Source: Eledone cirrhosa (taxonomy: Eukaryota). Taken from it: 64,000 bases of DNA. Made by a program: the position numbers and the translations under genes. The notes beneath the pieces were generated by a model that was not told where the DNA came from, searched no databases, and saw only the letters and a list, made by a program, of their open reading frames with translations. Shown one piece after another: positions 13,223 through 35,208 of the stretch. The DNA lies in assembly GCA_964016885.1 (NCBI GenBank), contig OZ024759.1, positions 36,890,001-36,954,000 on the forward strand, given 5' to 3'. How positions within the stretch are numbered: position 1 is the first letter of the stretch; each line of letters starts with the position of its first letter.

Positions 13223-13879
13223 CACGTTGGACAAGAGTCCTTGTTCTTTTCTGTTTTACTATTTCTCTCCTTTTTATATTTGTGTAATTCCCCTAAAGGT
13301 ATGCCTTGTCTTTACCTGGCAAGTGGGCCCCAGAAGTTCCACGGTAGCATTGCAAGAGCCCACAGTAGTATTGCAGGGCCCCCTGTAGTATTTTAGGGGC
13401 CAGTGCTTTGTTTAAAATCTTACCTGTAATCTAAGAGAAAGAATAATTTTTTTTTTAAATAAATAAAACAATTAAGCAAAGCATTTGGTCCACCAATTCC
13501 CCAGGGAATTACTAGAAACCAAAATATATGATAGTCCAAATAGCTGGAATCAGTGGTTGTACATTCTACTAAACTAAAGCTTGGTGTATTCATTCATGTA
13601 AACATACATATATAGACACAGACACAAGCATATGTATATGAGAGGGTGGGGAGAAATGAGGTTGAACAGAAATGAAACATGGATTACAGGTTAAAATATA
13701 TTCTAGATAGTTGTGAAACAAAATGAGGATGTAGTTTATGGAACACCCAAATGATTTAGAAGTCGACCTTAAGTAGCAGCAATAACATTAAGAAAGGCAT
13801 GAATGACACCACAACACTTTGGTTTGAAAATTTTGAAAGTAGGTTTATAAGTATGAATTTTCATAAGATTTTTGTAGTA

Positions 13880-13952
13880 GTCTCTGTGGCCTAGCGGTAG
13901 GTACTAGAGACGGTGGAGATCCTGGTCTTGGGTTCAATCCTGGTCAAGAGGT
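13880..13952 (+). other. tRNA-derived Pol III-type unit (A and B box), not a foldable tRNA
   Basis: A box TGGCCTAGCGG, B box GGTTCAATCC, downstream T5 runs. The anticodon arm does not pair. Confidence 0.6.
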
Positions 13953-14021
13953 ACATGCAACCTTTTTCAGTTTTTATTTTACAACCAATAGAAAAAAACT
14001 GAAAAGGTTTACCGGGAACCC

Positions 14022-14094
14022 TACTCCCGACCAGAATCGAACTCCAGACTAGGATCACCACCGTCTATGATTCTCCCAACTCGGCCACCGAGAC
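14022..14094 (-). other. Second, convergent tRNA-derived Pol III-type unit
   Basis: Minus strand carries A box TGGCCGAGTTGG and B box AGTTCGATTC, with downstream T4 and T7 runs. Confidence 0.6.
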
Positions 14095-14670
14095 ATCTAC
14101 AATAGTATAATGAAAATTGATAATTATAAACCTACTTTCAAAATCAAAGTTAAAAACATGTGGTGTGGTGTGGTGTCGTTCATGGCTTTCCTAGAGCTAT
14201 TAGTAATATTTAGGGTCGACTTCTGGTCATTATTGAAAGTCTCTGGATATCGTAAAATACATGATATTTTTTATTGGGGAAGGTACGATATTTTCCCGTA
14301 AAAATGTGATTGTACTGTTTTGTTTCCACTTATGTATTTTTCGAAAATGTTATTTATTCATTATAAAAATTAAATGATAGCATTCTATATGTAGGTGGGT
14401 CCCGTTCATCTCCTGGCAACCAATATTTTTAGACCCAGTCAGCCACTGTATACAGCTGTGTTTGCGTGTTTGTATGTACATGTGTGAGCATTGTGTGTGG
14501 GTATATATGTGTGTGTGGGGGGGGGGGGGGTATATATGTGTGTGTGTGTGTGTGCGCGCGCTAAATGGTCCTTTATTTCCGGTTTTCAATACAGTTTATA
14601 TATATATTATCAATGTCTTCCGCATTGCAACTAAAATACCATATGTCATAATGTGCTTAACACAATGTAG

Positions 14671-21550: not shown

Positions 21551-22163
21551 CTATCTCTCTCTCTCTATATATATATATATTTTTTTTATATCCAATTGAG
21601 TTCTTGACGCATGGTTAAAATTATTGAAAGAATTAATTGACCCGCGTGCATATTATTTTATGTTTTGCGATAACCTCCCCTTTCCGCTTTTTGGCAGTGT
21701 GAGATCTCGCATTGTGAGACTGCTGGAATTTCAAATTTGGCGGTCATTCTAGCACGGAGGAGTACCATCGTTGAATATTAATATCGGTAAGGTTTGTTTT
21801 TTTTATCGATATTTGTCGGACATCCACTGATAATTTATAAGTGGGTACCTACATATATTCCTACGGACTATGTGTAGGCTTCTACATAACCTGGACACTA
21901 TTTTCCTAATTTGTAGAAAACCTATAATGAAACGATCGTTTGGAAAGAGAGATGTATTTTAATTATGTCTCATATAAAATAATACAACTGGCTATCCGCA
22001 AAATACGTATAGTTAGCACCCCAAACGTAAAATTGGGATTATACTAAGGCATATCCTAATGTTTGTTGGGTGAGACGGAAGCCGGTCGGAGTATTGCTTA
22101 AAGCTTTCTCTGTTAATGTATTAAATATATATATATGCATATATATATATATATATATATATA

Positions 22164-22351
22164 TAACGAAGGAGTTGTGGTAAGGAACCAAATGGACCAT
22201 AACGCACCAGAGTACTTAGGGTAGTAGAGTGGGTAATGGGAACAAGTATGACCCCGACGGCAGAGCTCAAGCCGTTTCGACGGCTATTTCTGTACAGAAA
22301 TAGCCGTGGAAACGGCTTGAGCTCTGCCGTCGGGGTCATACTTTTTCCCAT
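22164..22351. mobile_element. TA-embedded foldback element family, copy C, with a 116-bp palindrome (22236-22351)
   Basis: Spacerless near-perfect palindrome centred on TTTC-TGTACA-GAAA, flanked by (TA)n. Confidence 0.9.
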
Positions 22352-23027
22352 ATATATATATATATATGTATATATATATCCCTCCATCACTCTTTCTCTC
22401 TCTCTGACTCTATCTTCCTCTCGTCCCACATACTATAATCACCACACTAAGAATGTTGATCCCTCTAGTACTTCCTCCTTCCAACTGACGTTCTTTTGGG
22501 CCCCATTCCTGCTTATATGTTTTTTCCTGTAAGACTTCTCTTCTGTTATTTTTCGTCTATTTCCACATCAACTCTCCCCCTCCAATTCTATTAGAATTTT
22601 CAGTTATTGTTATTGTACTGCAGTGACGGCTCCAAGTCAGAACTCTTTCATTCGTAGATTAAACTGGAATATGTCTACATCTCTGTGAAGATTGGTGGCG
22701 CAATTGCTATTTTGTGTGAAGAGAAAGAAACTCAATCTCTCTCCCTCTCTCTTTTACAATCTCTCTCTCTCTCTCTGGTTATATATACACAGATAGACAC
22801 ACACATATTACACATTATTCGGATGAAGTTAGTGGGTTCGTAATTTACGCACCAAACGAAACGGGGGGTGTAATATACTTTATATATGAGAGAGAGAGAG
22901 AAGTGTGTTCGAATGACTATATATAGATATATAGTCACAGGCCACATGTATATATATATATATGTGTGCGTGTGTATGTGATTATATATATATATGTCTG
23001 TCTGTGTGTGTGTGTGTGTGTGTGTTC

Positions 23028-30118: not shown

Positions 30119-31243
30119 ATTTCTTTATTTACCATAAAGGCATAAAAAGAAGGGACAAATACAAAGGGGGAGTTTACATATAATCGAGTAAAAAGGGTGT
30201 AACATGAAAATAATCGAAAATAACCTCAAAAGGGAGGGGACGTGATGGGGGTTGCACACACCCCCGAAAAAGTGTGCAATCCTTTGCCCGGGGAGCACAT
30301 GGAGAAGGTGCTCCCCTCTCCTTTACTTCTTTACCTACAGGATGGTATACAGAGAAGGCCCATTTACACGAGCCATTCTCGCCACTATCACCCACCTTTC
30401 ATAAAACTGCCTGTGGCCAAGCACCTCTCTCTCCATTCTTATCCTTCTTCCGAAGTGATATCGGAAGAAGTAGACCAGACTATGGCCAGAGAGGAAGTTG
30501 CCTGACCTCAGACCTTTCAATCGTGTCCACCAAACAACCTCTTTCAACATGGCTATTACGCACAGAAAAACCGCCTTTGCTTCCTTTGTGAAGAGGGGAG
30601 GCGGTTTGATTGTCATCACGGACTCGGCTGTCAATTTAATCGGCGCCACCCGCGACAGCAGTTGTTCGGCGTAGCCCCACAGATCAGCCACGCCCGGACA
30701 TTGCACCAATGCGTGCGCCACGGTTTCTTCGTGACGCACGCATCTAGGGCAAATCTTTTTTGAGGGATCCCTGCCCGGGCGCCCGTGTCTGTAGAGCCTC
30801 TCTCGAACGGGTAGAGCCCCTCGGTAGCACTGCCAGGCCAGTGACTTCTGGAAGTTGTCCATTGGTCCTGGGCCGAAAGTCCTACCGAACAGGCTGGCCA
30901 GTTCGTCTTCTTCCATGTCCAGCGACTCTCCAAGGGTGTCATCGCCCCTGCTAGCCACCAGCCCTCTATAGAATGATGAGGTGGATTCTCCACCGATGGC
31001 CCGGCCCGCTTGCCAGAGAGCCCTGAGCGCCTGAGCACACTCAGTGTGCCAGTCTCCCAGTTTTCCGGATCTTTGCTTGACCCAGGACTGTAGCTCGGTG
31101 AGTGAGACGAGTCTCGGAAAGGCTCGTTTCACGAACGGAGCCCACACCGGTTGACCAGTGAGGAATACCTGTAGGTGCCGTAGCCTTAATGCGTGCCTAC
31201 GCATCATCAACCACGGCATCCCCAGCCCTCCTTTCGAAGAGAG
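30119..31243 (-). mobile_element. 5'-truncated Tx1/L1-clade LINE: ORF2 C-terminus (zf-RVT) plus 3' UTR
   Basis: Uninterrupted ~300-codon frame (30335-31219+) with KGGLGMP, LPVRERL and CPRC-X8-H-X4-C (CPRCVRHEETVAHALVQC). The 3' end reads AATAAAGAAATCTAT. GC- and CpG-rich, consistent with a young copy. Confidence 0.9.
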
Positions 31244-35080: not shown

Positions 35081-35137
<57 letters not shown>

Positions 35138-35141
<4 letters not shown>

Positions 35142-35208
35142 AGATTCAGGACCCCGACGGCTGAGCTCCGGACGTTTTGACAGCCAGATGCCAAGTATCG
35201 AGTACTTG
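35138..35208. mobile_element. TA-embedded foldback element family, copy D (partial, opposite orientation)
   Basis: Reverse complement reads AGTACTCGATACTT/GGCATCTGGCTGTCAAAACGTCCGGAGCTCAGCCGTCGGGGTCCTG. Confidence 0.75.

Follow-up and report, generated by a model that had tools for sequence, protein, structure and literature searches.

The window analysed here, a 64-kb stretch of AT-rich and microsatellite-dense DNA (289 tandem-repeat rows), contains at positions 13758 to 14224 a palindrome that aligned with its own reverse complement at 70.7% identity over 481 columns (E value of 2e-59). Self-alignment and an arm profile placed the left arm at 13754 to 13974 on the plus strand and the right arm at 13995 to 14227 on the minus strand, with a spacer of about 20 bp between them. 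Across the window, the profile recovered six arms and one upstream fragment, and no other match was below an E value of 1.8. Both the palindrome of diverged inverted arms of about 230 bp and its three copies in 64 kb, as proposed in the first-pass annotation, were thereby recovered. Copy A (13317 to 14448, plus strand), as delimited by read coverage and self-alignment, is complete except for the outermost ~35 bp of its left end. Copy B (44140 to 44707, minus strand) comprises both arms and the flank as far as an internal microsatellite, is without a terminal repeat, has one box letter altered in each arm, and is 90.8% identical to copy A over 574 positions. Copy C (44884 to 45527, minus strand) has its right end beside a TA run and retains both arms, but it is broken off 30 bp beyond the left arm and its right flank has two deletions in comparison with copy A, to which it is 84% identical over 726 positions with two gaps. 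Copies B and C are both in the opposite orientation to A and lie 177 bp apart. An extra piece of the left-arm upstream block (45541 to 45598, minus strand), detected by self-alignment and by the profile, adjoins the broken end of C. Both ends are present in none of the three window copies, so that no target duplication is visible in them. The alignment of A with B stops at about 13600 to 13655 because an internal TA run is located there; this microsatellite, of TA and then GA type, was of variable length in reads and self-alignment.

Each arm carries one tRNA-like unit. The left unit (13880 to 13967, plus strand) has its +1 at 13880, an A box at 13887 to 13897, GTG at 13913 to 13915, a B box at 13931 to 13941, and a run of five T's at 13963 to 13967. 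The right unit (14002 to 14094, minus strand) has its +1 at 14094, an A box at 14087 to 14076, a B box at 14043 to 14033, and four T's at 14005 to 14002 followed by a longer T run. Every unit has a G at +1 and its A box at +8; the B box follows after 33 nt, and the first TTTT comes at +84 or +90, the T run starting 22 to 28 nt behind the B box. The A box, B box, and inward oligo-T that had been claimed for each arm are thus present in all six. Scored against a published Pol III promoter pattern, TGGCNNAGTGG-N30-35-GGTTCGANNCC (as given in the available text of PMC8969392), the A boxes of the six arms matched 7 to 8 of 9 letters (8 to 9 of 9 in the 12-nt form for the right arms) and the B boxes 6 to 7 of 9. 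A generic A+B pattern matched four times in 64 kb, always within the arms (four of the six; both copy B arms failed), and shuffled controls gave one match in 2 of 40 window shuffles and in 1 of 3,000 palindrome shuffles, indicating that the box pattern is not due to chance. A further B-box-like motif lies to the right of copy C (45700 to 45720, minus strand); no A box accompanies it at tRNA spacing, and it is possibly a SINE relic.

The units are not tRNAs, and the cloverleaf has been lost. ARAGORN at default settings returned no tRNA genes. Rfam gave only subthreshold matches, none in the window at the gathering score, and at E values up to 10 neither tRNA nor Vault was among the matches. The His-like anticodon position proposed earlier is correct insofar as GTG occupies +34 to +36 in all six arms. 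However, the His identity is unsupported, since the anticodon stem retains 1 to 3 of 5 pairs and U33 is present in two of six arms. The D stem is retained in the left arms only. At lowered thresholds, ARAGORN produced 141 and 35 calls, most of them spurious, in which one arm was typed as His and another as undetermined; the His call was rejected. Single units folded no better than shuffled sequences (z of -0.57 to +0.79). The arm alignment folds as one rod, in which the A-box region pairs with the stretch behind the B box, but covariation gave this consensus rod no support (term of +0.31; two-sided change in 1 of 21 pairs). The whole palindrome folds on both strands at -195 to -222 kcal/mol, compared to about -109 kcal/mol for shuffles (15 each). 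Selection for an RNA hairpin was considered but gained no support, as G-U-compatible changes showed no strand bias (11 versus 14; P = 0.69).

The two arm types are much further apart than the copies of either one. Left and right arms are 68 to 74% identical, with a K2P distance of 0.32 to 0.42 (nine pairs), whereas arms of the same type are 90 to 96% identical, with a K2P distance of 0.04 to 0.11 (six pairs). By this measure, the age of the asymmetric arm pair is several times that of its amplification, and the earlier statement that arm-to-arm divergence exceeds copy-to-copy divergence was confirmed. We additionally examined how this divergence is distributed. Between arm types, identity was 8/12 in the A box, 9/11 in the B box, 47/64 in the tRNA-like part, and 90/120 upstream. 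The invariant promoter positions were kept in 11 of 11 cases, compared to 38 of 53 other positions (Fisher P = 0.039) and to the 90/120 upstream (P = 0.050). An upstream block at -49 to -30, located at 13831 to 13850 on the plus strand and, by the arm alignment, at 14124 to 14143 on the minus strand, is identical between arm types at 20 of 20 positions; the longest identical run, of 21 bp, ends in TATAA at -30 (P = 0.028 by column shuffling). These P values come from post hoc tests with three copies per arm, on an element that was noticed for its boxes and is subject to that ascertainment bias. The expectation that the boxes are more conserved between arms than the flanks therefore held in part: the whole boxes are at background, and it is the 11 invariant positions that stand out (P = 0.03 to 0.05). 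Private changes affected 16 of 384 tRNA-like positions and 20 of 726 upstream ones. The present copies thus decay without a sign of selection, with decay no slower in the tRNA-like part than upstream, and the promoter constraint most likely predates capture by the transposon described below.

Four of eight listed public runs (X1, X4, X5, and X6) were aligned to 13250 to 14460 at 80% likeness. Over these 1,211 bases, 9,453 X1 contigs and 8,091 X6 reads were aligned, and 30 of 30 bins were covered in both. Between 13332 and 14460, every bin had a summed X1 depth of 1,900 to 96,000, against 652 for the next bin leftward, while the single X1 contigs among those listed had depths of 3 to 11; we read the summed depth solely as a sign of a high-copy family and not as a copy number. 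To the left, 349 X6 RAD reads pass beyond 13317 with a common 30-letter sequence. This read consensus opens with GCGGACTGG, which matches the inner 9 letters of the right terminal repeat at 8 of 9; the outermost 5 letters of the left end lie outside the consensus and are inferred. The right terminal inverted repeat (14435 to 14448, minus strand) reads CAGTGGCTGACTGG inward in copy A, with TATA outside, and the right end at 14448 is common to copies A and C. The end TA|CAGTGGC of the first-pass annotation was located at this position. The span of 13651 to 14450 given there was too short, as read coverage takes the family leftward to 13317 and beyond, and we infer that a whole copy begins ~35 bp left of 13317 and ends at 14448, a length of about 1.17 kb. 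The left break of copy A is abutted by another repeat (13250 to 13318), which is common to X5 contigs that continue otherwise. Inside the element, 612 reads run off behind 13626 into the TA run of the microsatellite (13600 to 13655). At the right end, 226 and 246 X6 reads, counted as reads and not as loci, pass into a TA-run consensus; for comparison with these flanks, 8% of window positions start TATA.

The left subterminal region (13317 to 13402) contains TGGCAA and GGGCCC-like motifs at about 13325, 13356, 13376, and 13396, and a motif scan located the same kinds of motif in the right subterminal region at 14397 to 14419. None was found in the ~1 kb between, so the motifs are restricted to the end regions. 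A hallmark of hAT elements is the recurrence of short motifs in the subterminal regions of both ends, and the end letters and motifs presumably resemble those of the Tip100 group. The single scanned open reading frame inside the element had no Pfam match. The proposal of a nonautonomous DNA transposon was supported by the match of the right end to the read-derived left end, the end-restricted motifs, and read coverage over the whole length. The same ends and motifs, coverage of the whole 1.1 kb, and the longest listed X1 pieces also bear out the view that the palindrome moves as a unit: among the best eight by length of those listed, a ranking that favors pieces spanning both arms, seven span both and one has the left arm without the right. 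On these sequence features, the element is likely a hAT-type DNA transposon, and no autonomous partner was seen. The target duplication of hAT elements is 8 bp (PMC6004678). Tc1/mariner terminal repeats are roughly 25 to 30 bp or more; one example in PMC6004678 has 29 bp. Both superfamilies are expanded in cephalopods, according to the accessible part of PMC10294476. A TA lies outside the right end of copies A and C, and such flanks are also compatible with Tc1/mariner or Mutator-type elements. However, the read-derived left end and the right end cease to match beyond their first ~14 letters, short of Tc1/mariner length, and the inner end regions did not align with each other (409 of 500 shuffles were as good).

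The run of organism B (X4) had high depth solely on the right ~130 bp, with right-end flanks that were mixed in 12 contigs and TA in 5. For the TA target duplication of Tc1/mariner elements, the 12 mixed flanks stand against the TA outside the right end of copies A and C. Its interior pieces were of low depth and about 83 to 96% identity, and the signal may come from a related species or from traces of organism A. That the high-depth family of organism B has only the right end (14316 to 14448) in common points to sister elements served by the same transposase.

Variants of the tRNA-like heads were also encountered in the runs. Contigs of X1 (two), X4 (two), and X5 (one) return from 13934 precisely to the left head's +1 at 13880; this is a tandem head duplicate of low depth found in both organisms. 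Two X1 contigs carry at 13870 a third head variant with the upstream region, the same 9-nt spacing, and an A box reading TGGCCCAGCGG. At 13935, four X1 contigs have loose ends, with heads followed by a different stretch behind the B box, which places related tRNA-like units in other sequence settings as well. A single X4 contig, 423 letters long, matches solely 13830 to 13945, that is, from the upstream block through the end of the B box. In copy B, the outer flank of the right arm (44120 to 44145) resembles the outer flank of the left arm at 17 of 26 positions, versus 7 to 10 of 26 in copies A and C; homology to the left flank was not found beyond these 26 bp. Judging from copy B, there may be a form in which the arms are longer or the right end is different, and the palindrome may also occur outside the transposon, as this copy has no right end and a left-arm-like outer flank.

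We compared the element with described families. No published description of it was found in the open literature; Dfam/Repbase, subscription papers, and bioRxiv supplements lay outside the comparison. The hAT-5 and hAT-NA families and MITEs are similar in their noncoding interior, high copy number, and presumed mobilization in trans, and probably in their short terminal repeats, but unlike them, as described in the available text of PMC6004678, the element here is 1.17 kb long with an internal diverged palindrome of Pol III cassettes. By analogy of design, the nearest described elements are the TRIMp3 elements (Cassandra, Helenus, and Ajax), which are likewise nonautonomous and have two small-RNA-derived Pol III promoters with the boxes kept and tRNA function lost. 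These are LTR retroelements with direct repeats, a site for primer binding (PBS), and a polypurine tract (PPT), and they need a transcript, whereas the units here form an inverted pair that differs by 30%, terminates immediately, and sits between DNA-transposon ends (TRIMp3 features as given in the accessible text of PMC10886601). In place of the two direct LTRs with PBS and PPT of a Helenus-type element, we found inverted arms around a ~20-bp spacer, and a search of one Helenus supplement file gave no match to the element. A solo-LTR reading, in which the arms begin with TG and have CA near the center, was weak, with no room for a PBS or PPT, and was rejected.

SINEs derived from tRNA, such as the dimeric Twin and the octopus SINEs (Ohshima and Okada 1994), also have a tRNA-like head with A and B boxes, and the internal Pol III promoter of SINEs (A box-N30-35-B box) is found here. 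By the descriptions available, including the part of SINEBase (PMC3531059) at hand, the present units are set apart from them in that the head is not at an element end, an upstream flank is shared, there is no body or tail, and the units are paired tail to tail. In place of a head within 10 to 15 nt of the 5' end followed by a body and tail, 128 bp of upstream sequence is common to the arms, in agreement with the earlier remark that the tRNA parts are internal with a long upstream flank, unlike a SINE. The microsatellite-targeting MITEs of pineapple share TA-run flanks that mask the target duplication and clusters of adjacent insertions (compare copies B and C), but they are plant elements, derived from Mutator, with long terminal repeats and no Pol III cargo mentioned in the available text of PMC8449440. 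The foldback element Tetris shares long inverted repeats and modular, rearranged copies; unlike in Tetris, the long repeats here are internal and old rather than terminal, the arms lying about 440 and 220 bp inside the ends, and the term "tRNA" is absent from the accessible main text of PMC4079207. The tRNA-like motif was also considered as a transposase-binding end box and rejected, as the units lie far from the ends and have an A box, spacing, and a T run. Neither the degenerate box pattern (metagenome, viral, and prokaryote collections) nor the end motif (metagenome contigs) had any match, and blastn against phages gave none. The 20-nt upstream block matched six loci in IMG/VR, extending to 24 to 38 bases at most, which we took as chance.

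We think that the locus probably represents an abundant noncoding repeat, a likely nonautonomous hAT-type cut-and-paste transposon, that carries an older inverted pair of tRNA-derived Pol III cassettes as a likely passenger. The palindrome would have arisen when a single Pol III unit, together with ~130 bp of its upstream DNA, was duplicated by fold-back, as judged from the homology, which runs through the T runs to the ~20-bp spacer. The two units would then have diverged to a K2P distance of about 0.35 with promoter-critical letters under constraint, most likely as a transcribed locus or master element. The cassette pair would have come between the transposon ends and later been amplified (copies differ by 4 to 10%), often into TA runs, by a transposase supplied from elsewhere. 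Intact copies would bind TFIIIC and produce two separate transcripts of 83 to 89 nt that stop before the center. Because each unit terminates before the center, two similar short Pol III RNAs would be expected rather than a long hairpin, which Pol II read-through would yield.

It is possible, though unlikely, that the cassettes instead serve the transposon, with paired TFIIIC sites or short Pol III transcripts keeping copies open or unsilenced and both promoters selected in the lineage of the element. The invariant box letters, upstream block, spacing, and T runs kept in both arm types over a K2P distance of about 0.35 are consistent with this, as is the excess of transversions between arms (32 versus 25 transitions, compared to 15 versus 25 within arm type; P = 0.10), which is expected where free sites are saturated. 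Constraint before capture, however, leaves the same signature, and a box letter has changed in both arms of copy B. Movement of a DNA transposon requires no transcript. The insulator or antisilencing role suggested in the first-pass annotation gained no support from the analysis. Retained Pol III promoters do have a precedent in nonautonomous LTR elements, according to the part of PMC10886601 available. Capture of a host locus, namely, tail-to-tail paralogous small Pol III RNA genes (vault-RNA-like or tRNA derived) copied with their upstream promoter elements, is improbable. It would explain why the homology takes in ~130 bp upstream and the terminators, and it is in line with the third head variant, the organism B contig restricted to block and boxes, and the rod that joins the A-box region to the stretch behind the B box; but no Rfam family came near threshold, with Vault and tRNA absent even at E values up to 10, single units fold like shuffles, the rod lacks covariation, and no source locus was found.

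We give still less credence to a palindrome formed by a separate old foldback, or by two SINE or solo-LTR relics, inserted in the transposon with the common box letters as chance leftovers. Copy B starts at an arm boundary with a left-arm-like flank, whole-box identity equals background, no structure is kept, and the P values, at 0.03 to 0.05, are modest. On the other hand, no SINE tail or flanking duplication of its own is visible, the arms are inverted and not direct, and the six arms and the single upstream fragment in the window include no solo arm. The flanks are covered by reads at least as deeply as the tRNA-like part, and the three weak constraint signals agree.

An element that moves through RNA can be expected to contain a Pol III promoter, while a cut-and-paste element does not need one; the letters retained here despite the deep divergence therefore suggest either that octopods have a source pair of RNA genes or that the transposon benefits. 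Should box-intact copies of the probable passenger pair bind TFIIIC, the family would lend itself to testing chromatin boundaries spread by transposons in cephalopods, for which it is suited because many intact and broken copies can be compared. If the pair is passive, the family would chiefly concern repeat libraries and would be a cause of spurious tRNA or SINE calls. A much bolder generalization, which we regard as doubtful, is that DNA transposons can profit from retaining two functional Pol III cassettes that converge and terminate themselves, as a counterpart of TRIMp3, and would thereby distribute paired TFIIIC sites or ~85-nt RNAs by the thousands in the octopus genome; such a design may recur across animals.

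Other repeats occur in the window. A LINE-like open reading frame with a zf-RVT domain (30335 to 31243, minus strand) has eight homologues; the two with animal names belong to Argonauta hians and Octopus sinensis, from which we take the genome to be that of an octopod. The best homologues of the frame are in metagenome sets and a bacterial MAG, probably because these assemblies contain animal DNA. An open reading frame fragment at 496 to 984 (minus strand) had no Pfam match and contains a motif that we take to be that of Penelope-type reverse transcriptases. A second, shorter repeat family with inverted parts lies within TA runs at 4005 to 4253, 7245 to 7485, 22121 to 22378, 35083 to 35197, and 60506 to 60783. 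Tandem arrays at 49010 to 49858, 50815 to 51637, and 55142 to 56109 have periods near 72, 30/59, and 56 bp.
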